A stretch of 34,728 nucleotides of DNA from the IMG/VR virus record IMGVR_UViG_2660237933_000001. One strand, given 5' to 3'. Both the position numbers and the translations under genes were made by a program. Shown here piece by piece: positions 698 to 34,728 of this stretch. The stretch is from a virus. Its lineage: Duplodnaviria > Heunggongvirae > Uroviricota > Caudoviricetes. The notes beneath the pieces are model-generated. The model ran no database searches and was not told where the DNA came from. It saw nothing but the letters and a program-made list of their open reading frames with translations. Positions within the stretch are counted from its first letter, which is position 1. Each line of letters begins with the position of its first letter.

Positions 698-1060
698 GGG
701 GCTGATTCTGGATTCGACGGGATTTGCGAAACCCAAGGTGCATGCCGAGGGGCGGTTGGCCTCGTAAAAAGCCGCAAAAAATAGTCGCAAACGACGAAAA
801 CTACGCTTTAGCAGCTTAATAACCTGCTTAGAGCCCTCTCTCCCTAGCCTCCGCTCTTAGGACGGGGATCAAGAGAGGTCAAACCCAAAAGAGATCGCGT
901 GGAAGCCCTGCCTGGGGTTGAAGCGTTAAAACTTAATCAGGCTAGTTTGTTAGTGGCGTGTCCGTCCGCAGCTGGCAAGCGAATGTAAAGACTGACTAAG
1001 CATGTAGTACCGAGGATGTAGGAATTTCGGACGCGGGTTCAACTCCCGCCAGCTCCACCA
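698..1060 (+). ncRNA. ssrA: tmRNA (transfer-messenger RNA)
   Basis: Begins GGGGCTGATTCTGGATTCGACGGG, ends ...GGGTTCAACTCCCGCCAGCTCCACCA; internal tag reading frame GCAAACGACGAAAACTACGCTTTAGCAGCTTAA (ANDENYALAA-stop) at 787-819; length 363 nt. Confidence 0.95.
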
Positions 1061-1070
1061 AATAAATCAA

Positions 1071-1102
1071 GGGGTTACGTGAAAGCGTAGCCCCTTTTTC
1101 TT
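1071..1102 (+). terminator. Rho-independent terminator downstream of ssrA
   Basis: Stem GGGGTTACG / CGTAGCCCC (one mismatch) with loop TGAAAG, followed by TTTTTCTTT. Confidence 0.55.
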
Positions 1103-1118
1103 TGGTAGTGGCGGCAAA

Positions 1119-1157
1119 ATGGCGACAGACTTTTGCGTCCATCTTGCCTGTCGCCAT
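1119..1157. promoter_or_regulatory. Candidate operator: 10-bp perfect inverted repeat ATGGCGACAG / CTGTCGCCAT
   Basis: Repeat arms at 1119-1128 and 1148-1157 separated by 19 bp, sitting 27-65 bp upstream of the ATG at 1184. Confidence 0.3.
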
Positions 1158-1183
1158 CTTGAAATCATGCAAAGAGGTTTCAC

Positions 1184-1666
1184 ATGGAAGAACTTCACTT
1201 TGTTTACATCAATGCAAATGGTCGTATCGCTGTTCACTCTATACAGAGCATCAGTTATAGCGAAAATCATATACAGGGCATTTGTAAGAACACCGATCGA
1301 ATAAAAACCTTCCGAAAAGACCGCATTCTTAAACAGTACGATTCACCAGAACAAGCCATTCAGGAATGCGCGTCATTCCTCCCCGAAAGCTACTCACATC
1401 TCACTAAGCAGTCTGGTCCGAAAAAAAATACATTCGATGTGTGTTTCACCGGATTTAAGAAAGCAGATAAAGAAAGATTGGTTGATAAGGCGAATGAACA
1501 AGGATTAACGGTAAGAACCTCTATAACCCAAAGCCTTCAGATGCTCTGTTGCGGTTACAATGCAGGCCCATCAAAAGTATCGGCAGCCAGGATGAAAGGC
1601 ACAATCATCATAGATGAGCCTGGCTTTATACATTTTCTTGAAACGGGTGAGATTCCAGATGAATAA
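1184..1666 (+). CDS. Hypothetical protein, N-terminal WYL-like region and C-terminal BRCT-like region
   Basis: 160-aa ORF with AGAGG 6 nt upstream of the ATG; N-terminal ...GICKNTDRIKTFRKDRI resembles the WYL-domain signature; C-terminal DVCFTGFKK...GLTVRTSITQSLQMLCCGYNAGPSKVSAARMKGTIIIDEPGFIHFL resembles a BRCT fold pattern. Domain calls are from motif memory only. Confidence 0.55.
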   Translation: MEELHFVYINANGRIAVHSIQSISYSENHIQGICKNTDRIKTFRKDRILKQYDSPEQAIQECASFLPESYSHLTKQSGPKKNTFDVCFTGFKKADKERLVDKANEQGLTVRTSITQSLQMLCCGYNAGPSKVSAARMKGTIIIDEPGFIHFLETGEIPDE

Positions 1667-1667
1667 A

Positions 1668-1685
1668 AACCTGCCGTAGCAGGTT
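1668..1685. terminator. Hairpin between convergent genes (likely ogr terminator, possibly bidirectional)
   Basis: AACCTGC-CGTA-GCAGGTT perfect 7-bp stem; on the minus strand it is followed by TTTTTATTC. Confidence 0.5.
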
Positions 1686-1692
1686 CTCTTTC

Positions 1693-1911
1693 TCAAAAAT
1701 TCATATGCCCCTGACCACCTGGCAATGGATGTGGAGGAGCAGTAGCAATCAGTGCGGGTGTCACAATAAACCGGACCACTGTTTCATGAGTAACAAAAGT
1801 GCTCCCGCAGTTAATATTTTGGCACTGGCAGTAACGCTCTTTGGTGCTTTCAGTTACTTGAAAACTGCTCCTTGTGTGTGCCGCATGACCACACTTTGGA
1901 CAATTCATCAT
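1693..1911 (-). CDS. ogr: Ogr/Delta-type zinc-finger late-gene activator
   Basis: Start chosen at the MM doublet (MMNCPKCGHAAH...KERYCQCQNINCGSTF...RFIV...PHPLPGGQ), giving about 72 aa with a CxxC...CxC...C pattern like P2 Ogr; the ORF track shows a longer 87-aa frame. Confidence 0.8.
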   Translation of the reverse strand: MMNCPKCGHAAHTRSSFQVTESTKERYCQCQNINCGSTFVTHETVVRFIVTPALIATAPPHPLPGGQGHMNF

Positions 1912-1979
1912 ATCCAGATCCCTACCTTTGCTATCAGAATCATTGTAATGATACACAAAATATCAATATTGAGAACACT

Positions 1980-3080
1980 TTATTCCATTTCAAGATCATC
2001 AATCTTCACTTCGAGTTCAATACTGGTTGTAAAACCGTTATCCGGGCTGACGGTATGTGTCAGAGTCGTAATGGTCCATTCCGCATCATCTATCGGCTGT
2101 TTAAAACCACTGACCTTCACAGGCATTTCCGTGTAGAGATCTGCCCGCCCTTCTGCCAGTTGTAGCGAAAATGACGCAACGCCGCGTTGCAGGCGTTCCC
2201 ACTGCATTTTCGCCGCTCGTTCGGCGTTGCTCCGGTTGGCATAAGTGCGATTAAGTACCAGCACGTTTTCATCCGTACCCACCAGGTAATCGCCCTGCTT
2301 CGCTTCTGGCTCTTTCTTCTGCTTCTTAGTTCTGCGCTTACGCTTCACCGTGGTGCTTTCTTTCTTCGCAGGTTCGCGGGTATGCAACCAGCTGGCAATT
2401 ACGCCCGTGTAGGCTCCGCGATCTGCCAGGGTAAATCGGTGACTGTCGCCGTCCTTGCGTGTGATAGTGATCACTGGCAGAGGTTTACCAGTGGCGCTTT
2501 TGCCCTGCCCCTGCCGGATGAATAACAGATTGCCATTTTTCACCGACGCGATGGCACCGTACTGTCGCGCCAGCCGCATCAGAAAACTGCCGTCACTCTC
2601 ATTAGTCTGGTCTATATGCTCCACGGGCTTATCCGACAGGTCTTTACCCAGTGCCATCTTCAGCTTGTGCCGCGCGGCTATTTCCTTCACCACTTCCCCG
2701 ACGGTGGTCTTATGCCACGATTTTTCACGGCGGGTATTCAGCGTTTCCCGAAAATCAGCACTTCGCGCCCGGATAGTCAGGCGGTCCGGTGCGCCAGTGT
2801 GTTCAATCTCGTCCACTGTGAATGCCCCTTTCGGGAAAAGCGGCTGCCCCTTCCAGCCCAGCGCCAGCGTAATAACCGCACCACGGCGCGGCAGCACGAT
2901 TTTTCCGTCAGCGTCATCCAGCTCCAGATCAAGCTGGTCCGCTTCAAAGCCCCGGTTATCCGTCAGCGTCAAACTCATCAGGCGGTTATCCAGCACAGTG
3001 GTGATATCCCTGCCCTCAATACTGATGCTGAATGCGGGAGTTTTGTTGCCTTTGTTAAGCAGTTCAGAGCTGAAATTCAC
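1980..3080 (-). CDS. D: Tail protein D (P2 gpD-like)
   Basis: 366-aa ORF, N-terminus MNFSSELLNKGNKTPAFSISIEGRDITT..., position and size as P2 gpD at the end of the FI-FII-E-T-U-D operon. Confidence 0.85.
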   Translation of the reverse strand: MNFSSELLNKGNKTPAFSISIEGRDITTVLDNRLMSLTLTDNRGFEADQLDLELDDADGKIVLPRRGAVITLALGWKGQPLFPKGAFTVDEIEHTGAPDRLTIRARSADFRETLNTRREKSWHKTTVGEVVKEIAARHKLKMALGKDLSDKPVEHIDQTNESDGSFLMRLARQYGAIASVKNGNLLFIRQGQGKSATGKPLPVITITRKDGDSHRFTLADRGAYTGVIASWLHTREPAKKESTTVKRKRRTKKQKKEPEAKQGDYLVGTDENVLVLNRTYANRSNAERAAKMQWERLQRGVASFSLQLAEGRADLYTEMPVKVSGFKQPIDDAEWTITTLTHTVSPDNGFTTSIELEVKIDDLEME

Positions 3081-8959: not shown

Positions 8960-9526
8960 TCAGGGAGATTTATTGCTCTTATTTGCCGGAAGTTTTCGAT
9001 AAATGGTAGAAACGCCTACATCAAAAATCAGTGCAATACGCTGTCTTGATTCTCCGGCCTCGAGTAAACGTCCAATCTGTGCCCACTGTTCAGTGGTCAA
9101 CTTAGGACGGCGTCCACCTACTCTGCCTTTAGCACGAGCTGCAGCCAGCCCTGCCCGGGTACGTTCAACTATCAGTTCGCGTTCCATTTCAGCCAGGGCA
9201 CCCATGACATGAAAAAAGAAACGGCCCATTGGGGTACTGGTATCAATACTGTCAGTCAGGCTTCGGAAATTCACACCACGCTGGCGCAACTCTTCTATCA
9301 GCGTAACAAGATGCCGCATACTGCGCCCCAACCTGTCCAGCTTCCAGACAACCAGCGTGTCTCCTGCCAATAGTGTCCTGAGCAGTTTTTTAAGCCCCGG
9401 TCTGTCGGACTTAGTGCCACTGATTTTGTCCTCAAAAATCCGCTCACATCCCGCGCAGTTCAGCGCATTACGTTGCAAATCGGTGTTCTGGTCATTTGTT
9501 GACACGCGTACATAGCCAATAAGCAT
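8960..9526 (-). CDS. Serine recombinase, DNA invertase of the Gin/Hin/Pin/Cin family
   Basis: MLIGYVRVSTNDQNTDLQRNAL...GDTLVVWKLDRLGRSMRHL...DSIDTSTPMGRFFFHVMGALAEMERELIVERT is near-identical in pattern to Mu Gin; start placed at the second ATG (GGGAG 6 nt upstream). Confidence 0.9.
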   Translation of the reverse strand: MLIGYVRVSTNDQNTDLQRNALNCAGCERIFEDKISGTKSDRPGLKKLLRTLLAGDTLVVWKLDRLGRSMRHLVTLIEELRQRGVNFRSLTDSIDTSTPMGRFFFHVMGALAEMERELIVERTRAGLAAARAKGRVGGRRPKLTTEQWAQIGRLLEAGESRQRIALIFDVGVSTIYRKLPANKSNKSP

Positions 9527-9581
9527 GATCATCTCCCTGAATAAAAATAGGGGATGATGCCAGTTAGCCGTAATCGCTGCA

Positions 9582-9607
9582 TTTTCTTAAACGTTGGTTT
9601 GGGAGAA
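9582..9607. repeat. Inversion crossover site, left (hix/gix-like, 26 bp)
   Basis: TTTTCTTAAACG-TT-GGTTTGGGAGAA; inverted copy of the site at 11439-11464, sharing TTCTCCCAAACCAA. Confidence 0.65.
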
Positions 9608-9970
9608 GCGGCAAAACGGGATGTGGGTAACGGGCAAAACCAAATTCCTGATATGTCAGCGTGGGAGTGTGGGGGAGATACAACGACGGGATGGAGGCGA
9701 AGCCCGGATGGTTATATTGAACAATGGGGGCTAACTGAGGCCACAACAAATGAAGTTTTGATTAATTTTCCTATCCCATTTCCGACAGCCGTCATTTCTA
9801 TTAATGAACATGACCAGGCTCCTGTGGCAGGGAAAATGTCAGTATGGCAATTCTATAAATTGACTAACTCAAATGTCATAGCAGAGAACCTGGGATCTCT
9901 TGATAAAGGAAATCCATCCTTCAATGTTCCAACTGTCGCTGGTTGCCGCTGGTTTGCTACAGGAAGATAA
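9596..9970 (+). CDS. Alternative tail-fibre C-terminal segment (silent orientation, no own start)
   Basis: Open frame runs through the left crossover site encoding ...GLGE-AAKRDVGNGQ...; the same GGTTTGGGAGAA (GLGE) codons occur in the H frame at the right site, so inversion gives an in-frame H fusion. Confidence 0.6.
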   Translation, partial: GLGEAAKRDVGNGQNQIPDMSAWECGGDTTTGWRRSPDGYIEQWGLTEATTNEVLINFPIPFPTAVISINEHDQAPVAGKMSVWQFYKLTNSNVIAENLGSLDKGNPSFNVPTVAGCRWFATGR

Positions 9971-9971
9971 A

Positions 9972-10412
9972 ATGAGTAAATATCTTTACGATGCAAAAAC
10001 TAATATGTTTTACCCATTTACTCTGGAAAGTCAGTATAAGGAGTCTGGGTTATGGCCTCATAATGGAGTTGAAGTTGATGAGGATATATTTATTAAGTAC
10101 CTGTCCCCACCTCCAGGGAAAGTGAGAGTTGCGGGTGATGATGGCTATCCTGCATGGGATGACGTACCGCCGCTAACTCATGAAGAACAACTGTCAGAAG
10201 CGGAACGAAAAAAACAGGCACTCATAAATCGAGTTAATGAATATATTAACAGTAAGCAGTGGCCAGGAAAGGCTGCTATTGGTCGTCTGAAAGGTGAGGA
10301 ACTGGCGCAATATAATTCATGGCTTGATTATCTGGACGCACTGGAAATGGTTGATATTTCCAGTGCTCCAGATATTGAATGGCCTACGCCTCCGGCTGTT
10401 CAGGCCAGATGA
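9972..10412 (+). CDS. Tail fibre assembly protein (alternative, for the silent fibre tip)
   Basis: Starts 1 nt after the alternative fibre segment stop (MSKYLYDAKTNMFYPF...); C-terminal ...LDYLDALEMVDISSAPDIEWPTPP parallels the other assembly protein; the ORF track shows a longer frame starting at 9900. Confidence 0.7.
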   Translation: MSKYLYDAKTNMFYPFTLESQYKESGLWPHNGVEVDEDIFIKYLSPPPGKVRVAGDDGYPAWDDVPPLTHEEQLSEAERKKQALINRVNEYINSKQWPGKAAIGRLKGEELAQYNSWLDYLDALEMVDISSAPDIEWPTPPAVQAR

Positions 10413-10977
10413 TATCCGGCGCGGTGCTGGTATCTGTTGCCGTCACCGCGTCAATGTAATCCAGCACGGCGTTAAGTCGGGTTGTTTCTGCCTGCGTCAG
10501 CTTCCGCCCGGCCTGCAATTTCAGTTGAATCAGACTGATGGAAGCCATTGCAGCATCAATCAGCGACTGGCGCTGTGCTTCTGCCGCGTCTACTGCGGCA
10601 CTATGCTGTGCCTCAGTATCTGTCACCCATTTCTCACCATCCCATTTATCGTATGGCGTTAACGGTGAAAGCGTGACATAACCGTCTTTGATGGCACCGA
10701 TATAATCCACTGTAACAGCTGCGCCATTTTCGATTGAGTAAGCAGTCTCATTGCGGTGGTCTTCTTCATGGCTCCATCCCTTACCCGTAAATACTGCCAC
10801 TTTCCCCGGAATGTATTCGCCCGGGTCAATACCAGTGGAACAGGCGGGCATACTTACACCAGTATTAATATATTCATCAGACCAGCCAGTATATTCAGAC
10901 GTTACTGCATCATAATAAAAACAACGCATATCACCCGGCACTGTAGCCAGCCCATTTTTATCAAAAACAGGTTTCAT
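10384..10977 (-). CDS. G: Tail fibre assembly protein (gpG/Tfa-like, expressed orientation)
   Basis: 197-aa ORF immediately downstream of H; C-terminal ...LDYIDAVTATDTSTAPDIIWPEQP motif typical of Tfa proteins. Confidence 0.8.
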   Translation of the reverse strand: MKPVFDKNGLATVPGDMRCFYYDAVTSEYTGWSDEYINTGVSMPACSTGIDPGEYIPGKVAVFTGKGWSHEEDHRNETAYSIENGAAVTVDYIGAIKDGYVTLSPLTPYDKWDGEKWVTDTEAQHSAAVDAAEAQRQSLIDAAMASISLIQLKLQAGRKLTQAETTRLNAVLDYIDAVTATDTSTAPDIIWPEQPEA

Positions 10978-20942: not shown

Positions 20943-22709
20943 ATGAACACCACACTGACACCCGCAGATCTCGATCCCCGTCGGCAGGCCATGCTGCTGT
21001 ACTTTCAGGGATACCGCGTAGCCCGCATTGCTGAAATGCTGGGCGAGAAAGTTGCAACTGTTCACAGCTGGAAGAAACGCGACAAGTGGGGTGACTATGG
21101 GCCGCTGGATCAGATGCAGCTCACCACCGCCGCCCGCTACTGCCAGCTCATTATGAAGGAGCACAAAGAAGGGAAAGATTTCAAAGAGATTGACCTGCTG
21201 GCGCGCCAGTCGGAGCGCCACGCGCGGATCGGCAAGTTTAACAATGGCGGCAACGAAGCCGACTTAAACCCTAACGTCGCCAACCGCAACAAAGGCCCGC
21301 GCCGTCAACCGGAAAAAAATGTCTTCACCGATGAACAGCTTGAGAAGCTGGAAGAAATTTTCCATTCCTCCATGTTCAACTACCAGCGCCACTGGTGGGA
21401 AGCCGGAAAAACCAACCGCATCCGCAACCTGCTGAAGTCACGCCAGATCGGCGCGACCTTTTACTTTGCCCGTGAAGCCCTGATTGACGCCCTGCTTACC
21501 GGACGTAACCAGATTTTCCTTTCTGCCAGTAAGGCACAGGCTCACGTCTTTAAGCAGTACATCATCGACTTCGCCAAAGAAGTGGAGGTGGAGCTGAAAG
21601 GCGATCCGATGGTGCTTCCTAACGGGGCCACGCTTTACTTCCTCGGCACTAATGCCCGCACGGCCCAGAGTTATCACGGCAACCTGTATCTGGATGAATA
21701 TTTCTGGATACCGAAATTCCAGGAGCTGCGCAAAGTGGCTTCCGGTATGGCTATTCACAAAAAATGGCGACAAACCTATTTTTCCACGCCATCCAGCCTG
21801 ACACACAGTGCTTATCCGTTCTGGTCCGGTGCGCTGTTTAACCGTGGGCGCAACAAAGCCGATAAGGTGGACATCGACCTGTCCCACAACAATCTGGCCC
21901 CCGGCCTGCTGTGCGCAGACGGGCAATACCGCCAGATAGTCACCGTGGAAGATGCGGTGCGCGGCGGCTGTAACCTGTTCGACCTCGACCAGCTACGCAT
22001 GGAGTACAGCCCGGACGAATACCAGAACCTGCTGATGTGCGAGTTTGTGGACGATCTCGCGTCCGTGTTTCCGCTCAGCGAGCTGCAGGCGTGCATGGTG
22101 GACAGTTGGGAAGTCTGGACCGACTTTCATGCACTGGCGCTGCGCCCATTTGGCTGGCGCGAAGTGTGGATCGGTTATGACCCGGCGAAAGGTACGCAGA
22201 ACGGCGACAGTGCCGGATGCGTGGTGGTGGCACCGCCAGCCGTGCCGGGCGGCAAGTTCCGCATTCTTGAGCGTCACCAGTGGCGCGGGATGGACTTTCG
22301 CGCCCAGGCTGACGCCATCAAAAAACTGACCGAACAGTACAACGTGACCTATATCGGCATCGACTCAACCGGCGTTGGTCACGGGGTTTACGAGAACGTG
22401 AAAGCGTTTTTTCCTGCCGTCCGGGAGTTTGTCTACAACCCCAACGTTAAAAACGCCCTGGTACTCAAGGCATACGACATTATCAGCCACCGCCGTCTGG
22501 AGTTTGACGCCGGGCACACCGACATTGCGCAGTCATTCATGGCAATCCGTCGCGCCACCACCGCCAGTGGCAACCGCCCGACCTATGAAGCCAGCCGCAG
22601 CGAAGAAGCCAGCCACGCCGATCTGGCCTGGGCAACGATGCACGCACTGTTTAATGAACCGCTGCAGGGCGAGTCCGCCAATACAAGCAATATTGTGGAG
22701 ATTTTTTGA
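20943..22709 (+). CDS. P: Terminase large (ATPase) subunit P
   Basis: 588-aa ORF MNTTLTPADLDPRRQAMLLYFQGYRVARIAEMLGEK... recalled as gpP family; divergent from O. Confidence 0.9.
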   Translation: MNTTLTPADLDPRRQAMLLYFQGYRVARIAEMLGEKVATVHSWKKRDKWGDYGPLDQMQLTTAARYCQLIMKEHKEGKDFKEIDLLARQSERHARIGKFNNGGNEADLNPNVANRNKGPRRQPEKNVFTDEQLEKLEEIFHSSMFNYQRHWWEAGKTNRIRNLLKSRQIGATFYFAREALIDALLTGRNQIFLSASKAQAHVFKQYIIDFAKEVEVELKGDPMVLPNGATLYFLGTNARTAQSYHGNLYLDEYFWIPKFQELRKVASGMAIHKKWRQTYFSTPSSLTHSAYPFWSGALFNRGRNKADKVDIDLSHNNLAPGLLCADGQYRQIVTVEDAVRGGCNLFDLDQLRMEYSPDEYQNLLMCEFVDDLASVFPLSELQACMVDSWEVWTDFHALALRPFGWREVWIGYDPAKGTQNGDSAGCVVVAPPAVPGGKFRILERHQWRGMDFRAQADAIKKLTEQYNVTYIGIDSTGVGHGVYENVKAFFPAVREFVYNPNVKNALVLKAYDIISHRRLEFDAGHTDIAQSFMAIRRATTASGNRPTYEASRSEEASHADLAWATMHALFNEPLQGESANTSNIVEIF

Positions 22710-23746
22710 TGGGAAAGAGTAAGAAAAACCGCGCTGCGGCGATGAATCACATCCAGTATAAAAGCCAGACTTCAGCCGAAGCATTCAGCTTCGGCGATCC
22801 CGTTCCTGTTCTGGACCGCCGAGAATTACTGGACTATGTGGAATGCATACAGATGGACCGTTGGTATGAGCCGCCCGTCAGCTTTGACGGACTGGCGCGC
22901 ACCTTCCGCGCCGCCGTGCATCACAGTTCCCCGATTGCAGTAAAGTGCAACATTCTGACCAGTACCTATATCCCTCATCCGCTGCTCAGCCAGCAGGCTT
23001 TTTCGCGTTTTGTGCAAGACTATCTGGTATTTGGTAACGCCTACCTGGAGAAACGCACGAACCGCTTCGGTGAAGTTATCGCCCTTGAACCTGCCTTGGC
23101 GAAATACACACGACGCGGGTTAGACCTGGATACCTACTGGTTTGTGCAATACGGTATGACAACACAGCCGTATCAGTTCACGAAAGGCAGCATCTTTCAT
23201 CTGATGGAACCGGACATTAACCAGGAGATCTACGGCCTGCCCGGCTATCTTTCTGCCATTCCGTCAGCCCTGCTCAATGAGTCCGCCACGCTGTTCCGCC
23301 GTAAGTATTACATCAACGGCAGCCATGCAGGCTTCATCATGTACATGACCGACGCCGCGCAGAATCAGGAGGATGTGAACAATCTCCGCAACGCGATGAA
23401 AAGCGCCAAAGGTCCAGGCAACTTCCGCAACCTGTTTATGTACTCGCCTAACGGCAAAAAGGACGGCCTTCAGATCATCCCTTTGTCAGAAGTTGCGGCG
23501 AAGGATGAGTTTCTGAATATCAAAAATGTCAGCCGCGATGACATGATGGCAGCACATCGCGTTCCGCCACAGATGATGGGGATTATGCCAAATAATGTTG
23601 GGGGTTTTGGGGATGTGGAGAAGGCTAGTCTTGTATTTGTTCGCAATGAATTGATGCCACTACAGAAGCGACTACATGAACTAAACGAATGGGTGGGTGC
23701 AGAAGTAATACGTTTTGATGACTATGTTTTAGGTGTTCAGGAATAA
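22706..23746 (+). CDS. Q: Portal protein Q
   Basis: 346-aa ORF overlapping the P stop by 4 nt; recalled as gpQ portal family. Confidence 0.9.
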   Translation: MMGKSKKNRAAAMNHIQYKSQTSAEAFSFGDPVPVLDRRELLDYVECIQMDRWYEPPVSFDGLARTFRAAVHHSSPIAVKCNILTSTYIPHPLLSQQAFSRFVQDYLVFGNAYLEKRTNRFGEVIALEPALAKYTRRGLDLDTYWFVQYGMTTQPYQFTKGSIFHLMEPDINQEIYGLPGYLSAIPSALLNESATLFRRKYYINGSHAGFIMYMTDAAQNQEDVNNLRNAMKSAKGPGNFRNLFMYSPNGKKDGLQIIPLSEVAAKDEFLNIKNVSRDDMMAAHRVPPQMMGIMPNNVGGFGDVEKASLVFVRNELMPLQKRLHELNEWVGAEVIRFDDYVLGVQE

Positions 23747-23753
23747 AAGAAAA

Positions 23754-23775
23754 GGCGCTAATCTCAGCGCCTTTT
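23754..23775. terminator. Bidirectional rho-independent terminator
   Basis: GGCGCT-AATCTC-AGCGCC perfect stem flanked by A-run upstream and T-run downstream; sits between convergent Q and the 112-aa cargo gene. Confidence 0.65.
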
Positions 23776-23792
23776 ATCTAACTAACCATATA

Positions 23793-24131
23793 TTAACAAA
23801 CGGCGTATAAACCATCAAATCCAACGGAATGAACCTTTTTTGATGCTACTTCATTACTACGGCGTTGGATCACTTTTGCAATACTTTTTAAAATTGAAGG
23901 GGGTGCATTGCGAACCTTAACTTGACTCAAAACTTTGGTTACACCGAATTTCACTACCAAAACACCAAAGATTTCATCAGAGTATGATTCTGAAATTGAA
24001 TAAACACCGCTCAGATCTAAATCTACGGTATACCCTTCTTTAATGAACCCTTCAATCTTGTGTCGTTGGGGGATAGCCTGATTGCGCGAAGCCAGGTCAC
24101 CCTCGGGTAACTTGTATGCGATTTTGTTCAT
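23793..24131 (-). CDS. Hypothetical STAS-like (anti-sigma-factor-antagonist-like) small protein
   Basis: 112-aa ORF; strong AGGAGG RBS; start overlaps the upstream gene stop (TAATG). Motif DLDLSGVYSISESYSDEIFGVLVV resembles the SpoIIAA/RsbV-type phosphorylatable-serine region. AT-rich. Confidence 0.6.
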   Translation of the reverse strand: MNKIAYKLPEGDLASRNQAIPQRHKIEGFIKEGYTVDLDLSGVYSISESYSDEIFGVLVVKFGVTKVLSQVKVRNAPPSILKSIAKVIQRRSNEVASKKVHSVGFDGLYAVC

Positions 24132-25105
24132 TACTCTCCTCCTAACGCCCGCATTATTTCCATAAGCTGAGGGTCATTTTCTTCGCTATCTTTATCGACT
24201 GCCAGTTCATGAATCTTAAAACGGCAAGAAATTGCTACACCCGGCCATTCAGTACGTAATTCAGTATAGCTCACTTCATCACCTATTGCTTCTAAGCATA
24301 CATTTCCTGAAGCCAGTTGCAATTCCCCGTTATATGTTTTTATCAATTTCATCAAGTGATACAACCCAAGCCCTTGATGATTATTATCTTTTTCTTTGAC
24401 CGAAACCCCGTGGCCAAACACACTACCCCCAATAAAGTCCTGGGGAAGCTGCTGTGCCCAATCATCCTGCAAATCAGCATGCTTAGATGAATGTCCCTCT
24501 TGAATACACCATGCGATCGCATCCTGGTGAGTCTCAATTCCGGGTATACCAGCTCGCCGCAATTCTCGGAGAAATCCTAACCCACAGTCCGCCAAAGAAA
24601 ATTCTAAATAGTGCTCTTTTTTTTGAGTGTGGGGTACAGCCGAACGTTGTGCAAAAGAAAAACCCGTTGATTTTCCATGCGACCAAACGTTATCGTGAAG
24701 CTCACCTATAACATGGGTTAGATCTGTAAGTCCCTTGGGACAATCTCTCGGATCACGATCAGGGAATGTTAACTGCCTTACACAACTGTTAATACTACCA
24801 GTGGCAACGTCAACAGCTTCAACATTGGTTAATGCTGTAACCAAACTGTAATTTCTTCCAACATTTACACGTTCCTGTTGATACTGATCCTCTCCCCATA
24901 AAGCACCATGTAAATTGATAGCTCGCATATAGCCAGGGCATGACAAAACACAGTTATCTTCGGTAATTTTGTGATGATTCACGTAAGCTGCTAAGACAGT
25001 GATAAAACCAGGATGCCAATGATTGTTTGGCAATTGCAATTCATTAGTTTCCTTTTGATGAAACGCAGCGGTATGCACAATAGCGTCTTTTAATCCTAAC
25101 CCCAT
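24131..25105 (-). CDS. Hypothetical GHKL-family ATPase / serine-kinase-like protein
   Basis: 324-aa ORF. C-terminal half has an N-box-like ELHDNVWSHG (E, N+4, H+8, G+9 spacing as in SpoIIAB/RsbW), a G1-like DCGLG and a G2-like GLGLYHL; N-terminal ~125 aa unassigned. AT-rich. Confidence 0.6.
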   Translation of the reverse strand: MGLGLKDAIVHTAAFHQKETNELQLPNNHWHPGFITVLAAYVNHHKITEDNCVLSCPGYMRAINLHGALWGEDQYQQERVNVGRNYSLVTALTNVEAVDVATGSINSCVRQLTFPDRDPRDCPKGLTDLTHVIGELHDNVWSHGKSTGFSFAQRSAVPHTQKKEHYLEFSLADCGLGFLRELRRAGIPGIETHQDAIAWCIQEGHSSKHADLQDDWAQQLPQDFIGGSVFGHGVSVKEKDNNHQGLGLYHLMKLIKTYNGELQLASGNVCLEAIGDEVSYTELRTEWPGVAISCRFKIHELAVDKDSEENDPQLMEIMRALGGE

Positions 25106-25134
25106 GAACCGAACCTTTTTTATGCATTTTTCTT

Positions 25135-25163
25135 ATCATATAACTTAGGACTGATCAGCGCAA
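25135..25163 (-). promoter_or_regulatory. Candidate sigma70 promoter for the cargo pair
   Basis: On the minus strand TTGCGC-17 bp-TATGAT about 30 bp upstream of the 324-aa ORF start. Confidence 0.25.
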
Positions 25164-25222
25164 AGCTCCCGACACTATTGAATCATACTAAATTAAGGCC
25201 TATACCACACAGCACAGCGCGC

Positions 25223-25242
25223 GCTCGTATCCCCGCCACGCC
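25223..25242 (-). other. cos-like cohesive-end site
   Basis: Minus strand reads GGCGTGGCGGGGATACGAGC; the first 13 nt match what I recall of the 186 cohesive end (GGCGTGGCGGGGAAAGCAT) and the P2 one is similar. Confidence 0.5.
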
Positions 25243-25446: not shown

Positions 25447-25680
25447 TTAATGCAGCCAGCTGTCGTCTTCCCACACTTTCTGCATAATTTTCATCACTTG
25501 TTTTCTTTCTTCGTCCAGTTGCAGTCCGGTAAGTTCCACACCGTTAGAGCTACCTTTGCGGATACGAATTACCGTTTTGGGATACAGGGGGCGCAGGTTG
25601 CGGTAAAGCTCGGACTCCAGAGCGTCCAGGGTAGACTGGCTAATCTTCTGCTCTTTATCGATCATTATTTCAATGCGCAT
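25447..25680 (-). CDS. dinI: DinI-like protein
   Basis: MRIEIMIDKEQKISQSTLDALESELYRNLRPLYPKTVIRIRKGSSNGVELTGLQLDEERKQVMKIMQKVWEDDSWLH matches the DinI pattern (MRIEV...EL..R......V....NG......KE....I.E.WE..D.W); GAGGTGA RBS upstream. Confidence 0.8.
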   Translation of the reverse strand: MRIEIMIDKEQKISQSTLDALESELYRNLRPLYPKTVIRIRKGSSNGVELTGLQLDEERKQVMKIMQKVWEDDSWLH

Positions 25681-25690
25681 AAAAGTCACC

Positions 25691-25879
25691 TCAGCTGATG
25701 ACATCCATTGAGCGGTTGTATTCGTGGGTTCTGATTTTTGCCATGAGTTCATCTGTTAGTTCAGAAACCCACTGCAGGGCCAGCCCCTTCTCTTCATCAC
25801 TACACTCACTAGCCGCTACAAGCTTAAGAAAAAAATCAATGCGCTGGAGCTTCAAAGACTCCAAAAAATAGTCCTGCAT
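25691..25879 (-). CDS. Hypothetical 62-aa protein, possibly the N-terminal (antirepressor) part of a Tum-like unit
   Basis: First ORF downstream of the LexA box and immediately upstream of the DinI-like ORF, in a different frame; 186 Tum is recalled to carry a DinI-like C-terminal domain. Confidence 0.4.
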   Translation of the reverse strand: MQDYFLESLKLQRIDFFLKLVAASECSDEEKGLALQWVSELTDELMAKIRTHEYNRSMDVIS

Positions 25880-25919
25880 CTTTCCTCCTATGACACCAAA
25901 GCAATACTGTATACATAAC

Positions 25920-25939
25920 CACTGTTTATATTTACAGTA
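25920..25939. promoter_or_regulatory. LexA box (SOS operator)
   Basis: CACTGTTTATATTTACAGTA matches the consensus TACTGTATATATATACAGTA at 17 of 20 positions with an intact CTGT-N8-ACAG core; about 45 bp upstream of the 62-aa ORF start. Confidence 0.65.
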
Positions 25940-26031
25940 TATAATAATCTTACTGATGTAAAACGTTTTTTTACGTTCATCAGCCTGATATGCCTGGTAT
26001 TATTAAGAGCACGAATTGTTAACCCGCGTAA

Positions 26032-28446
26032 TTAATACAGATCCCGCCACTTATCATCTTCCTGCAAACGCTGGTTCCGATAGAAGATACGCAGGCCTGC
26101 TCCTGACGGAATACTGCCGCCGCGAAGGAGTAAACCGACCTCTTTCTCGCTGCCATCAAATCCTCTGGACTTCAGCTCATAGACGAGCTGCTGTCGCTGA
26201 TGGTCTGTAATTCGCTGTTTGTAGTCTTTACGCCGTTTCGGTTTCACCAGGCGTAACCTTGCAGCCAGTTCCCGGCGCTCTTTTTTGCTCATACTGTGCA
26301 GGTAATCGTGCAACTCCTTGTCATCCATGCGGGTAATGTCCATTCTGGTATCCCCATAAGCTGATTTGTCTTTCCCTTGTTGGTTCAAATTTTCAGCAAG
26401 GGGACAGTTATTGCCACGAGTCCAAGGGGCGCAAGCGCCCTGGTCGGCTGCCGCCTCCTGAACGTCAACGGCCTTACGAACCATTTTCCACTTCACTGCA
26501 TGAGTGCAGATTTTGCCCTCTGCAATGGGTGACCAGATGCCATAAATACGAATGCCGTGATCGCCATAGGCGGTCGGCTCTTCGTTGATTTCATAAGCGG
26601 TTCTGATGAGGTGATATTTACGGGGAACCAGTACGCCGCCCTGCTTCATGATGTAGGTGGCAAAACAACCAGCATCAGCTGCAGCCAGAATGGCATCAAG
26701 GCGCTGGTTATCCAGTACCGGCGCACCTGCTTTTTTGTCACCCTGTTGCCTTGCCGCCTGACCAGCCAGCAATCGCAGTTCACGGTAAGCCTGACGCCCC
26801 GGAATGCCAAAGAAGCGGAATTGCTGAACACGATGCAGAGACGCCCAGGCATTAACGTATTCAGCGTTATCACGCAGAGATTTACCCGTTTCCTTGCTGA
26901 TCTCGCCAGCCAGACCACGCCCGTCAATGTTCTTACTGATGTATTTCGCGATGTAGCTAGTCGGCGTTCCTTTGCGCGGGTTTATCAGCTCAGACTTAAA
27001 GCGTGGCCCCGTGTTATTACCCAGCTCCTCGCGGTCTTCACGGATAGCAAACTTACGCAACAATGCAGTAATGGCGCGGCGGTCTTTTTTGCGCATGAAA
27101 CACAACAGGTGCCAGTGAACTGTGCCGTCATGATGCGGCTCAGCCACCCGCACGCCATACCAGCGCAACCCGGCTTTGTGCATCGCCTTACGAAATGCAG
27201 CAAACATGCCGACCAGATAATCACTGCTTTGTCTTACCGTCGCATTTGTCCAGGTCGGGTTGGGCCTGCCGTTATTTAGCGTGGAATGGAAACGTGACGG
27301 ACAGGTGATGGTGTAGAAAACGGCGCAGTCACCGCGCATTTCCGCGATAAGCTCCAGACCTTTAACACAGGCCATCATCTCATTGCGGCGATGCGCAGGG
27401 TTGCTGCTGCTGGCGTTTACCACATCCTCCATGTCCAGCGTGTCGCCGTCTTCGTTCACCAGTTCATGAGAACGGAAAAACTCCAGCGACTTACGGCGCT
27501 GCTCACGTTTATGCATCACGGCTTCATAGCTGACATAGGGAGATGCTTTTTTGCTGACCAGGCAAACAGCACGCAACTGCTCTTCCCGCCATTCGCAACG
27601 CATCTTCCATAATTTCCGGTACCACCAATCGGCGCACAACATACGCGCCAGCGAACCCGGAATGAGTTCATAGGGCACGGGTTTACGGCGGTTTCTTTTC
27701 CGGCGGAGTTGCTCAAACGCAGGCGGTATGACATCCAGTCGCAGGGTTTCTGCTGCCACCTTTTCCCATGTCTTGCGGATTTCTTCTGGCTTAACATCAT
27801 CGGTGGCGTACAAATCACCACAAGCGGCATCAAGACACATACTCATATGCGCAGCGACAAGAGTAGACAGGCGTTTCACCTGATCCTGACTCATTTCAGG
27901 CAAGATCAGCAGGCCGTCCAGCCCTTCATGGCTTGCCATAAAGCGAAAAGAAGTGGATAGCTGACTGTCGCGTACATGCTCCAGTCGTTCCAGACATGGC
28001 TTAATCGTCTCACGCAAATAGCGGGAATAAGCCTTTGGCCTGCCCAGGCTGCTGAAGTATTCAATACGTTGCATCAGCGGCTTGCTGATATGGGAAGGCT
28101 GGGCGTTAACGTCCGCCAGTATGACCATGTCCGGATTAAAACGCTGCTGCTCATGCGCCAGCTTTGCCCGGCTAATAAGCTTATCCTGCTCCATTTCGCG
28201 CTGGACAGGATCACGGGATTCATTAAAGAAATAACGCTCCCAGACCTGATCACTCAGTGCCTCGCGGCGCAGTTGTTCCTGCTCGTTATCGGCAGCGTAC
28301 AGAGTGATCAGGTTTGAAAGCGCAGAAACCGGCGCAACTTCCGCCGGGTCCAGATAAGGGTTAATAGCCTTTTTCGGGCTGTTCCATGAGAATGCTGCGG
28401 CGGCCTCGTTAAAGCCGCTGCAGTTGTTCATATCAGCATGGCTCAT
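26032..28446 (-). CDS. A: Replication initiation protein A (rolling-circle nickase)
   Basis: 804-aa ORF with an HxH-containing segment (GTVHWHLL) and a tyrosine motif [16 protein letters not shown], as recalled for P2/186 gpA. Confidence 0.9.
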
Positions 28447-29300
28447 GCACGCACTCCGTACACGGCAGAACTATCCACGCCACGCGAAGAATCAAATCCC
28501 ACCCAGCAGCGTGCCCCAGAAACAGCGATGATTTCTGTTGCAGATTTACTCTCACCAGCTGCTACGCCGATGCTGCGTTTTGCCTTGATGTAGTGGTGAG
28601 TAAAATTGCGATACAGCGAACGGATCAGGGATGTGTCACTGTTAGAAACAATGACCGGATGTCCTTCTGATGACCGATGTTCAAGAACGGATGCCAGGTG
28701 ATACTGGTCATCTTCAGTGAAACCATCAGTGTGATAGCCGGAAAACGTACCGTCATACGGCGGATCGCAATACACCACATCCCCCGCCTTCAACATCGCC
28801 AGCGTTTCATCAAAGCTGGCGCAGATAAACGTTGCTCGCAGGGCCTTTTCTGCAAATGCGCGAATTTCTTTTTCAGGGAAATACGGATTTTTATAATTAC
28901 CGTAGGGAATGTTGAAATGCCCGCTCTTGTTATAGCGACATAAACCACGGTAACCGTGACGATTGAGATACAGGAAATATACCGCTTTCATGAAATCAGT
29001 AATTTCAGTTGAGTAATTAAACTCCTGCCTTATGTTGTAATAAGCCACCTCCCTGTTTGCGATCTCAAATAAAACTCTGGCGCGAGATATAAACGATTCA
29101 CAATCAGCAGCAACCTTTTTATAGAGGTTGATTAAATCAGGATTAATATCCGCAACAAGATAGCTGGGGTAATCCGTCTCCATCATCACAGCACAGGAAC
29201 CCGCGAAAGGTTCAACCAGTCGCGGGCCAGCAGGAAGATGTTTTTTCAGTTCGGACATAATGGTAGTTTTATTACCCGCCCATTTCAGGATGGTGCTCAT
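28443..29300 (-). CDS. dam: DNA adenine methyltransferase (Dam-like)
   Basis: [11 protein letters not shown]..., EPFAGSCAV (FxGxG) and VVYCDPPY (DPPY) motifs; start placed at the internal ATG with GGAGG RBS, overlapping the upstream stop (ATGA). Confidence 0.9.
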
Positions 29301-29599
29301 ACAGCACCTCCTGCAATAACATATCCTAAAGCTTCTAATGGGGTTAATGGGCGAATTGATAGCATCACCCATTGTTCTGAAACTGCCATGACGTCATTAA
29401 CCGGAAGCACATGAGAGATAACAGCGGCCCATTCCCTACCCGTAAATACGCCATGCTTCCATTCGCAAAGAGAAAGAACATCACCAACTTTATAGCCACG
29501 ATCGTCTTTACGAAGTTCAGCCGTCTTTTGACCTGCAACCACAGCGTTGAAATACTTAGGTGCAATTTTTAATTGATGGATACGCACTGCCCTTGTCAT
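29297..29599 (-). CDS. DUF3850/ASCH-like small protein
   Basis: [47 protein letters not shown]... fits the DUF3850 pattern as I recall it; GGAGG RBS 7 nt upstream of the ATG at 29599. Confidence 0.6.
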
Positions 29600-29821
29600 A
29601 CAGCACCTCCGTTGTAATGTTTGCCTTTCAGCTCTACGATTTCCTGGCAGGTAATGCAGCTGCACTCCCGGAATGGCGCGGCGTCGTGCTGGCGGAATTG
29701 GCGCTTCACATTCAATACAAAGCACGCGAGACACGCCCGGTGTTTTGGCACGGGCAGCACGAATATGGCGCTGGCGTTCTTCTTCAACGCGCTGCTGTAC
29801 GAGATCCATTGCATCAGCCAT
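29596..29821 (-). pseudogene. TraR/DksA-type C4 zinc-finger gene, apparently frameshifted and fused in-frame to the downstream DUF3850-like ORF
   Basis: Frame from 29821 encodes ...[22 protein letters not shown] then loses the second CxxC; the expected [15 protein letters not shown]...stop continues in another frame ending at TGA 29596-29598. The frame break is near 29655-29662. Confidence 0.45.
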
Positions 29822-33198: not shown

Positions 33199-34728
33199 GT
33201 GATTAAAAATATAGACATTCAATCAGATGCTGTTGCTAAATTGAGAATGGACTCTATTCGTTCAGAAATTCAAAGTTATAACCCCGAATTATTCATTGAA
33301 TTCTGCATGCAATATAATCTACAAAAATTTGATGATAATTTACACATGCTGCGTCATATGCCGTGGATAGTAAACTTATGTTTAAAATGGTCAGCATCTG
33401 TAATAGGCAAGAATAGAAAGTTCAAAACCCTTACAAAAAATCAAGCCATCAAGCTATTTCAAAAAGCCTATGAAACTTTAAGTATCATCCCCATTGGTCT
33501 TGAAAAGAAAAACGGAGTGCATTTTTTTCCAAGAAATAATTTATACCAGCAAGGTATTTATCAAAAAATTGACGCAATAAACTCCATTAGCAGACAGGTA
33601 TTTTTATTCTCACAACTCGAAAACACTCATAAAATAAAGACATCGTTTTTCAAGTTAACAAACATTTCAATTGATGATTTTTTAAAACTATCTTACATTT
33701 TAATATCACTAATAACAACGGAACATCCCGTCAGAAAAATAAATGTTAATAGTTTCAGTGTGTTATTCCCTATTTTACCCAAAGATACCGTAGAGAACTT
33801 TCTCGATGCAATCTCAATAAATTACAGTGAGCTATCAAAATTTTCAAAATCCAAGACATTTGAAAAGCCTTTGTTAGAATACTATTCATCTTCACCGTAC
33901 TTAGAAAATCCTTTAATCAAAAAAGGTTCTGATTATTTCCAGATACATGCACAACTAACATCAAGAAGCATACAAACATTTATATATGACCTTTTAAGAA
34001 GAACTGACGCTGAAAAATTCATGGACAGTTTTGGAACTGTATTCGAAAGAGCATTAGGAAAAATTATTCAAGAGAGTAATATTCCTGTTATCACAGAGGA
34101 TCATCTTAAAGAAAAGTTACCCAAAGATAATAAAGTAGTTGATTTTTTGTTTCCACACGCGAATGCAAATATATTCATTGATGCCAAGGGGGTTGAAATA
34201 CATCAAAAAGGCATGGTTACTTTACGGCCAGAGGATATTTCAGGAAAAATAAAAAAGTCTGTTTTAAAAGCTATCGAGCAAGCTCATGAAGTTAACAGAG
34301 AAATTTACTTAGACGATAAAGCAACAATAACCCCATTCAGGAAAGAATCTTTTGTGATATGCATTACATATAAAAACTTATTTTTAGGTAATGGTACATT
34401 CCTTGCCAGTACATATGCAGAAACTGAGATGCTAAAGATATATGATAAATTCAATACTGACTACCACATACCTAAAGAAAATATATTTTGCTTAGCTTTT
34501 GATGAATTTGAGTACCTTGTTGCATCCTGCAAAAATGCACATGTGCCTCCTCATATGGTTCTGCAATACGCAGTTGAAAAGAACAAAGAACCATCCAGTG
34601 CAGCCTTCCTTTTTTCCCAACATATAGAAAGCTATTTTGATAGAGTTATTAATTCTGATGTAGTAAATGAGATGGGAATAAAAATGGTTGACTCAGTTCT
34701 GGAAAAAATTTCCCAAAATGAAAACTAA
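33199..34728 (+). CDS. Hypothetical 509-aa protein, possible PD-(D/E)xK nuclease-like core
   Basis: Long uninterrupted ORF, strongly AT-rich and Lys/Asn/Ile-rich, starting 12 bp after int; contains VVDFLFPHANANIFIDAKG (D...hhh-D-x-K); no Walker A motif seen. Confidence 0.6.
   Translation: MIKNIDIQSDAVAKLRMDSIRSEIQSYNPELFIEFCMQYNLQKFDDNLHMLRHMPWIVNLCLKWSASVIGKNRKFKTLTKNQAIKLFQKAYETLSIIPIGLEKKNGVHFFPRNNLYQQGIYQKIDAINSISRQVFLFSQLENTHKIKTSFFKLTNISIDDFLKLSYILISLITTEHPVRKINVNSFSVLFPILPKDTVENFLDAISINYSELSKFSKSKTFEKPLLEYYSSSPYLENPLIKKGSDYFQIHAQLTSRSIQTFIYDLLRRTDAEKFMDSFGTVFERALGKIIQESNIPVITEDHLKEKLPKDNKVVDFLFPHANANIFIDAKGVEIHQKGMVTLRPEDISGKIKKSVLKAIEQAHEVNREIYLDDKATITPFRKESFVICITYKNLFLGNGTFLASTYAETEMLKIYDKFNTDYHIPKENIFCLAFDEFEYLVASCKNAHVPPHMVLQYAVEKNKEPSSAAFLFSQHIESYFDRVINSDVVNEMGIKMVDSVLEKISQNEN

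Follow-up and report, generated by a model that had tools for sequence, protein, structure and literature searches.

The window analysed here, a stretch of 34,728 nucleotides (IMG/VR virus record IMGVR_UViG_2660237933_000001), is a 186/P2-like prophage, and we found that between its portal gene Q and cos it carries two genes whose products, a kinase-like protein of 324 amino acids (aa) termed K and a STAS-like protein of 112 aa termed S, very probably form a cognate kinase/STAS pair homologous to VapK/VapS. Our working model, for which the case falls just short of persuading us, is that K-S is a self-contained two-gene phospho-switch and serves as swappable cargo of a cos-proximal defence hotspot. 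We lean slightly towards an anti-phage role for the pair, and we doubt, without dismissing it, that the output of the switch is K itself acting as an effector.

Kinase/STAS pairs have recently been characterised as immune switches. In VapKSC, a STAS-GHKL kinase activated by single-stranded DNA (ssDNA), VapK, adds a phosphate to S48 of the STAS antitoxin VapS, and the PIN toxin VapC is released; the system protects against phage Bas42, and VapS uses a C-terminal inhibitory helix (Chambers et al., EMBO J 2026, PMC13373217). In CapK/CapS, an ssDNA-activated kinase with a helix-turn-helix (HTH)-STAS-GHKL architecture phosphorylates a repressor made up of a STAS domain and a winged HTH (wHTH), whereupon a downstream immune operon is de-repressed; CapKS control CBASS, Bub and Thoeris operons (PMC13373217). 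An earlier sequence-only reading of this DNA had considered a phage-borne kinase/antagonist pair unusual, and such a pairing is no longer without precedent because the homologous CapKS and VapKSC were characterised in 2026.

K is a member of the GHKL superfamily. The motifs ELHDNVWSHG, DCGLG and GLGLYHL, from which that reading had proposed a GHKL protein, are present in a kinase domain that spans residues 125-297 (24215-24733, minus strand) and supply its N box (E135/N139/H143), G1 box (D173-x-G175-x-G177) and G2 box (H243-x-G245-x-G247). Among 55 K homologues N139, D173, G175, G177, H243, G245 and G247 are invariant and the E135 column holds E in 48 sequences and D in seven; the ATP-site motifs of this K are intact. 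Of the two profile matches expected for the pair, the STAS-like one was obtained (see below) and the HATPase_c one was not, as K scored 13.6 bits against a Pfam gathering cut-off of 26.4 (E 0.09), and here the motifs and the fold stand in for the sub-threshold profile. VapK is likewise below threshold on HATPase_c (23.4 bits). The predicted structure of K has the Bergerat fold and is best matched by SpoIIAB (including its N-terminal helices), RsbW and UsfX, in keeping with the anti-sigma-kinase-like identity first suggested; these matches rank at or above those to all histidine kinases, and only two topoisomerase II ATPase domains gave comparable scores.

The link between K and VapK was established with VapK and VapS sequences recovered from the deposited AlphaFold file of PMC13373217. 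Aligned by hhalign, the K profile and the VapK kinase domain gave a probability of 90.7 % (E 1.3e-6, approximately 25 % identity), and residues 54-285 of VapK matched the K-family member P0189 with an E of 2e-9, the N-domain included and with an identical FLRP motif. VapK F54, the proposed ssDNA-stacking residue and the equivalent of CapK W68 (PMC13373217), falls in the profile alignment on K-family column 29, a position where 51 of 55 sequences have H, Y or F and this K has His, and VapK P57 falls on the near-invariant P32 of the K family. On the basis of these alignments, we take K to be a VapK-like kinase that has diverged and whose STAS-like sensor domain is shortened. This domain (residues 1-120; 24746-25105, minus strand) is of an alpha/beta sensor type with a conserved linker helix (95-113), and structural support for its STAS-like nature is weak. 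Compared with VapK, K is without the first ~25 residues of the STAS domain and has a family-specific insertion of ~30 residues in the ATP-lid region (residues 209-242; 24380-24481, minus strand), which shows as a gap in the hhalign and BLAST alignments; the insertion contains conserved W216, Q218, P221 and G226 and is predicted with a low pLDDT (53-56).

S, which presumably serves K as both substrate and antagonist, consists of a DUF4325 STAS domain alone and falls into the VapS class. It matched Pfam DUF4325 'STAS-like' (PF14213) with an E of 3e-9 (score 36.8 bits; cut-off 23), all of its 60 homologue clusters are PF14213, and VapS also belongs to DUF4325 (E 2.7e-17). A direct hhalign comparison of S with VapS reached a probability of 15 % only, and the kinship of the two rests on this shared Pfam membership. 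The serine-containing motif noted at the outset was found in S as residues 47-53 (S-E-S-Y-S-D-E; 23973-23993, minus strand), a candidate phospho-acceptor motif located where STAS antagonists bear their phospho-serine. When 55 distinct S proteins were aligned with VapS, the motif read S47-x-S49-[YF]-[AS]-D52-E53, with S47 and D52 present in 55/55 and S49 and E53 in 54/55. From this conservation, the phospho-acceptor of S is probably S47 or S49. Column 48, which aligns with S48 of VapS, is variable in the same set (E in 36, G in six, and S, D and A in three each). With regard to the C-termini of S (23793-23840 in the window), the last residue is A, C or V in 40 of the 55 proteins and 19 end in '-AA' (e.g. 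RRRALAAA, PASAA), and those of E. coli and Klebsiella finish with 'AVC'. One could speculate that these tails, which resemble ssrA-type ClpXP degrons, mark S as a labile protein, as would fit an antitoxin.

Taken as a module, K-S resembles VapKSC in the order of its genes (K, then S), in its homologous kinase domain, in the membership of both STAS proteins in DUF4325, in the size of S (112 aa, versus 116 aa for VapS), and in being associated with mobile elements and defence contexts. It differs in that VapKSC has a third gene, for the PIN toxin VapC, which K-S does not; in addition, the position equivalent to VapS S48 varies in S and it is the flanking S47 and S49 that are conserved, and the tail of S is short and variable, as opposed to a conserved inhibitory helix. 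K-S also has in common with CapKS a kinase paired with a STAS substrate, the conserved serine and the K-then-S order; the aromatic residue of the proposed ssDNA site (W68 in CapK, F54 in VapK) maps to column 29 of the K family (His here). However, CapK has an N-terminal HTH and K, which begins within its STAS-like domain, has none; CapS carries a wHTH whereas S has only DUF4325 according to Pfam; and what comes after S is a terminator and then Q, a convergent gene, which leaves no downstream operon to regulate.

That K and S belong together is also evident from their distribution. We surveyed 57 loci, each from a distinct GTDB species, and clustered gene neighbours over 62 loci. S lay directly downstream of K in 56 of the 57 GTDB loci, the lone exception (L031) being a locus that stops at a contig edge, and with ~295 homologue clusters for K and 60 for S this pairing is well beyond chance. 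The loci come mainly from Gamma- and Betaproteobacteria, with hosts that include Enterobacterales, Pseudomonas, Acinetobacter, Vibrio, Burkholderiales, Neisseria and Gallionella, and from a few metagenome-assembled genomes (MAGs) labelled Kuenenia, Pirellulales and Magnetococcales. The family of K, phrog_3364, is a PHROG listed as of unknown function, and all of the K clusters are annotated as 'hypothetical' and carry no Pfam domains; an exhaustive HMMER search of 1.84 billion proteins gave 171 representative K clusters at E <= 1e-30, nearly all of them 290-330 aa long, with end-to-end coverage and no added domains. In this window the genes for K (24131-25105) and S (23793-24131), both on the minus strand, share base 24131, which belongs to the TAA stop of K as well as the ATG start of S; the TAATG overlap (24129-24133) and an AGGAGG at 24138-24143 together make up a coupling signal at 24129-24143, as the sequence-only reading had it, and at the other K-S loci the genes either overlap or are separated by no more than ~40 nt. 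Natural fusions occur too. A 372-aa open reading frame (ORF) of a Succinivibrio MAG (L060, 6094-7212) matches both profiles, and a fused form is also represented by phrog_5816, a profile of 441 positions, because it spans K in its middle (match at 158-232) and S at its C-terminus (345-440).

Just as telling is what does not accompany the pair. When all flanking ORFs within 3.5 kb were clustered, no recurrent third gene was found in the 62 loci, the commonest neighbours being integrases, P2 portal and terminase, and lysozyme. A gene for a VapC-like PIN toxin is absent from the window and from all 62 loci. Since no other gene travels with the pair and fusions exist, the output of the switch most likely lies within the K-S complex itself. 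A different view of the same data is that K-S is a VapKSC-like switch whose effector is supplied in trans, S binding and inhibiting a toxin or other effector whose gene is at another site of the prophage or host, and K releasing it upon encountering ssDNA. K-S pairs are indeed modular and have been joined to varied outputs (a PIN toxin in VapKSC, a protein with one transmembrane segment (1-TM) in P4 system 69, a wHTH plus operon in CapKS), and a GapS1 defence gene, described below, is present in the same prophage. Nevertheless, we consider an effector in trans improbable, given that no gene recurs beside K-S at loci drawn from different elements and phyla, that many S homologues, at 93-100 aa, amount to a STAS domain alone and are without the C-terminal inhibitory helix of VapS, and that the K-S fusions argue for S acting on K as opposed to a distant partner.

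The structural likeness of K to SpoIIAB raises the alternative of a classical partner switch, in which K would sequester a host or phage regulator encoded elsewhere (as an anti-sigma or anti-transcription factor), S would release it and phosphorylation of S would reset the system; the consequence would be reprogrammed transcription (lysogenic conversion, superinfection exclusion or host takeover) and not cell killing. In its favor, an anti-sigma factor, SpoIIAB, is the best structural match of K down to the N-terminal helices, ahead of RsbW and UsfX; SpoIIAB/SpoIIAA and RsbW/RsbV are likewise encoded by adjacent, co-translated genes, and their STAS partner has a serine where helix 2 begins, in line with the conserved serine motif of S; and in Salmonella prophages the pair occupies a late-gene moron slot, between antiterminator Q and lysis. 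On the other hand, K-S differs from these switches in being without a sigma factor or PP2C phosphatase gene (neither goes with the pair at any of the 62 loci, and neither lies between Q and cos), in the additional ~120-residue N-terminal domain of K, in that S belongs to DUF4325 and not to the canonical STAS family, and in its residence on phages and mobile elements in Proteobacteria. Furthermore, the closest sequence relatives of K, VapK and CapK, are sensors and not anti-sigma factors, and because K-S moves among very different hosts a target in trans would have to be a universal one. For these reasons a partner switch of the classical kind seems unlikely to us.

With regard to genomic setting, there is precedent for defence genes at this very site. 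The gpA-gpQ interval beside cos is a P2 defence hotspot, and one P2 locus in Table S5 of the study that defined it reads 'hypothetical + hypothetical + DUF4325 + DinI' (Rousset et al. 2022, PMC9122126), that is, the arrangement of K-S at the same locus, catalogued there without a description and outside the set of systems tested. The same work lists, as P4 system 69, 'HATPase_c | DUF4325 (+ 1-TM protein)' (PMC9122126), likewise a hotspot-borne module of this type; it differs from K-S in that its kinase is a clear HATPase_c protein from another family and its third component, a membrane protein, is the likely effector. In the window the pair sits next to cos at a position that varies between related phages. 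Among 5426 complete E. coli genomes, the K-S module was found in 19 and its flanks in approximately 1270 (the RefSeq names being 'hypothetical protein' for K and 'STAS-like domain-containing protein' for S), and the close relative vB_EcoM-813R9 carries another single gene, with a Hypoth_Ymh domain, in the same slot and orientation. The K-S genes are thus swappable cargo and not conserved core, as the sequence-only reading had supposed of genes near cos. Its other remarks on the slot were also accurate: the module is AT-rich against its backbone (G+C fraction 0.39-0.47 versus 0.52-0.60), and the Q-cos interval, ~1.5 kb here, is only ~170 bp in P2 (cosL 1-19, tQ 160-181, Q from 187).

Elsewhere the module keeps similar company. 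It is found in a P4-like/AlpA-DUF927 element of Pseudomonas, in the slot from antiterminator Q to lysis of P22-like Salmonella prophages, adjoining an integrase in Vibrio, in P2-like elements of Ralstonia and Burkholderia, and in two phages, the P2-like RSA1 (at the end closest to cos) and vB_SBP7 (close to the end of the genome). Among the nearest neighbours in diverse loci, 12 of 20 were mobile-element or defence genes and 4 of 20 were housekeeping genes, and some copies (L007; L032, L047) are in chromosomal sites without nearby phage genes. Our leaning towards an anti-phage role draws on the hotspot site, the rarity of the pair relative to its flanks, the swapping of genes in the slot, the association with mobile elements, the presence of GapS1 in the prophage and the kinship with VapKSC. 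As to GapS1, a 509-aa ORF in an island with a G+C fraction of 0.33 (33199-34728, plus strand) begins 13 nt downstream of the integrase gene, ~8 kb from K-S, and its stop codon is the end of the window. It has no Pfam or PADLOC v2 match, and its homologues, among them a 100 % identical E. coli cluster, are named 'GapS1 family protein', which is why we regard it as a second defence cargo on the integrase side of the prophage. GAPS1 is a known single-gene anti-phage system.

Variable regions of phages carry anti-defence as well as defence genes, and the pair could instead help the phage by interfering with host immunity of the CapKS/VapKSC type, as a decoy substrate or a competing kinase. Such a role would be in line with the homology of K-S to host immune regulators and with the occurrence of the family in deposited phage genomes (RSA1, vB_SBP7) and in a late-gene slot. 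It is harder to reconcile with the chromosomal copies that have no phage genes nearby and with those in P4-like satellites and integrase islands, which are typical sites of defence cargo; moreover, the gpA-gpQ slot has so far been populated by defence systems, and the candidate promoter, the terminator and an orientation opposite to Q all fit expression in the lysogen. Counter-defence accordingly strikes us as quite unlikely.

The cargo extends over ~23.78-25.22 kb (~1.4 kb for K-S). Its left edge is a hairpin at 23750-23775 (11-bp stem and T-run in a terminator scan), a bidirectional intrinsic terminator common to Q on the plus strand and S on the minus strand, and the equivalent of tQ in P2. 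The right edge is set at 25.22 kb because homology to the backbone of other P2-like phages restarts at 25216-25217 (BLAST versus phages), just before a cos core of the 186 type, GGCGTGGCGGGG (reverse complement), found by pattern match at 25231-25242. The pair therefore lies, as was first proposed, between the Q terminator and cos and on the strand opposite to Q. A standard promoter scan of 23.6-26.1 kb returned no sigma-70 site; a relaxed scan gave a weak candidate inside the cargo, TTGCGC-17-TATGAT (25135-25163, minus strand; 8/12 matches), whose 3' end would tentatively place it 29 nt upstream of the K start.

Returning to the self-contained switch, we envisage the following sequence of events. 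K would sense a cue of phage infection or DNA damage, most likely ssDNA lodged, as in CapK and VapK, in a groove where the N-domain meets the kinase domain, and would phosphorylate S at S47 or S49. Unphosphorylated S, antitoxin-like and perhaps proteolytically labile, would keep K inactive within a complex. Once S was lost or phosphorylated, K would be released to work on targets of the host or the phage, either phosphorylating them or sequestering them as SpoIIAB does. Growth arrest or abortive infection would follow and the lysogen population would be protected. The most specific version of this scheme, in which a SpoIIAB-like GHKL kinase is at once sensor and effector, a bare, ClpXP-labile S is its antitoxin, and ssDNA or the loss of S turns K against an essential host or phage factor, is one that we put forward as a doubtful though attractive possibility.

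Several observations weigh against this model. Kinases of the SpoIIAB type normally act with high specificity on their STAS partner, and to our knowledge a toxic or promiscuous K would be without precedent. In addition: (i) the position aligned with VapS S48 is variable, with E in 36 of 55 S proteins; (ii) the degron reading of the S tails is speculative; (iii) the promoter candidate is weak; (iv) no PADLOC or NCBIfam model matches the K-S family, and we infer its anti-phage role; and (v) neither DUF4325 nor HATPase appears in Table S2 of evaluated systems of Rousset et al. (PMC9122126). With respect to (iv), neither K nor S had a match in NCBIfam, and the only PADLOC-DB v2 match of K, to PDC-M65A (E 0.007), is not a real one; no named defence system fits the pair, and the sequence-only reading, too, had placed it in none. 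S gave only a local PADLOC-DB v2 match, to the DUF4325-like segment of the DrmA model PDLC02567 (profile 314-397, E 5e-6), which suggests that some DISARM DrmA proteins contain a DUF4325/STAS-like domain. Searches of PDB sequences with single sequences and profiles of K and S returned nothing meaningful and did not detect the VapS/CapS crystal entries, the Vassallo 2022 screen mentions neither GHKL nor STAS nor related terms, and we found no description of an effector-less K-S family in the literature searched.

K was found to be frameshifted or truncated in ~9 of the 57 species loci (L054, L055, L056, L057, L059, L061, L062, L063 and L064), including the complete genome of Neisseria weixii, and among these S was broken as well in only one. 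Disruption of K with retention of S is the direction expected for a costly or toxic K and may be a weak hint of one. It counts against reliance on this asymmetry that it is not statistically significant and that many of the loci are MAGs. The disrupted copies could also be indicative of decay, K-S being a remnant of a larger system, such as VapKSC minus its PIN gene, with no present function. However, the two-gene form is the only form in the 57 species, the catalytic and motif residues are invariant down to ~35-40 % identity, and both ORFs of the window are intact and coupled; we rejected the fragment or remnant reading because the motifs do not vary and the two-gene form is constant, and regard it as barely credible.

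Should K prove to be sensor and effector at once, K-S would represent the first kinase/STAS 'toxin-antitoxin' able to do without a separate effector, with the partner-switching chassis alone executing immunity. Described kinase/STAS switches act through a separate output, be it a repressor domain or a PIN toxin, and it was only in 2026 that kinase/STAS phospho-switches were linked to DNA damage and bacterial immunity. K-S retains the switch without an output gene; its mode of action would reveal either that a SpoIIAB-type chassis can serve as effector in its own right or that this chassis connects to some conserved target of the host. Prophage-encoded defences would in addition gain a small module (1.4 kb) that is portable and responds to DNA damage. 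What is new here is a widespread, effector-less two-gene variant; the hotspot, the arrangement (catalogued in 2022) and the related switches (2026) were already known.

Further genes flank the cargo. To its left are the terminase gene P (20943-22709) and Q (22706-23746), both on the plus strand. Across cos from K-S is a 186-type SOS module (25447-25945) made up of a DinI-like gene (25447-25752, minus strand; a Tum-type antirepressor, named 'SOS induction modulator' in phage 813R9), a gene for a 62-aa protein (25691-25879, minus strand; phrog_698) and a LexA box, CTGTTTATATTTACAG, at 25922. The replication gene A follows (26032-28446, minus strand), and the overall order is Q, S and K, cos, the Tum/DinI-like gene and A. 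We considered the 62-aa and DinI-like (Tum) genes as possible parts of the module and rejected them, as they belong to the backbone and are found alongside many other cargos.

Three other regions of the prophage deserve mention. In one of lower G+C content (8960-10977), a serine invertase (Resolvase + HTH_7; 8960-9532, minus strand) adjoins two oppositely oriented tail-fibre-assembly genes at 9900-10412 (plus strand) and 10384-10977 (minus strand); the region looks like an invertible host-range switch of the type of the Mu G segment or the P1 C segment. A second lower-G+C region (0.43) at the left end of the window (1001-2136) has ORFs at 1184-1666 and 1705-2136 that have no Pfam assignment, the first of which gave a weak PADLOC match to the candidate system PDC-S48 (E 4e-7) over its C-terminal 70 residues only. 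Finally, ahead of a Dam-type D12 adenine methylase (28443-29372) comes a DUF3850/ASCH protein (29297-29821) that has a TraR/DksA zinc finger, and this gene pair is likewise present in the P2 locus lists of Rousset et al.

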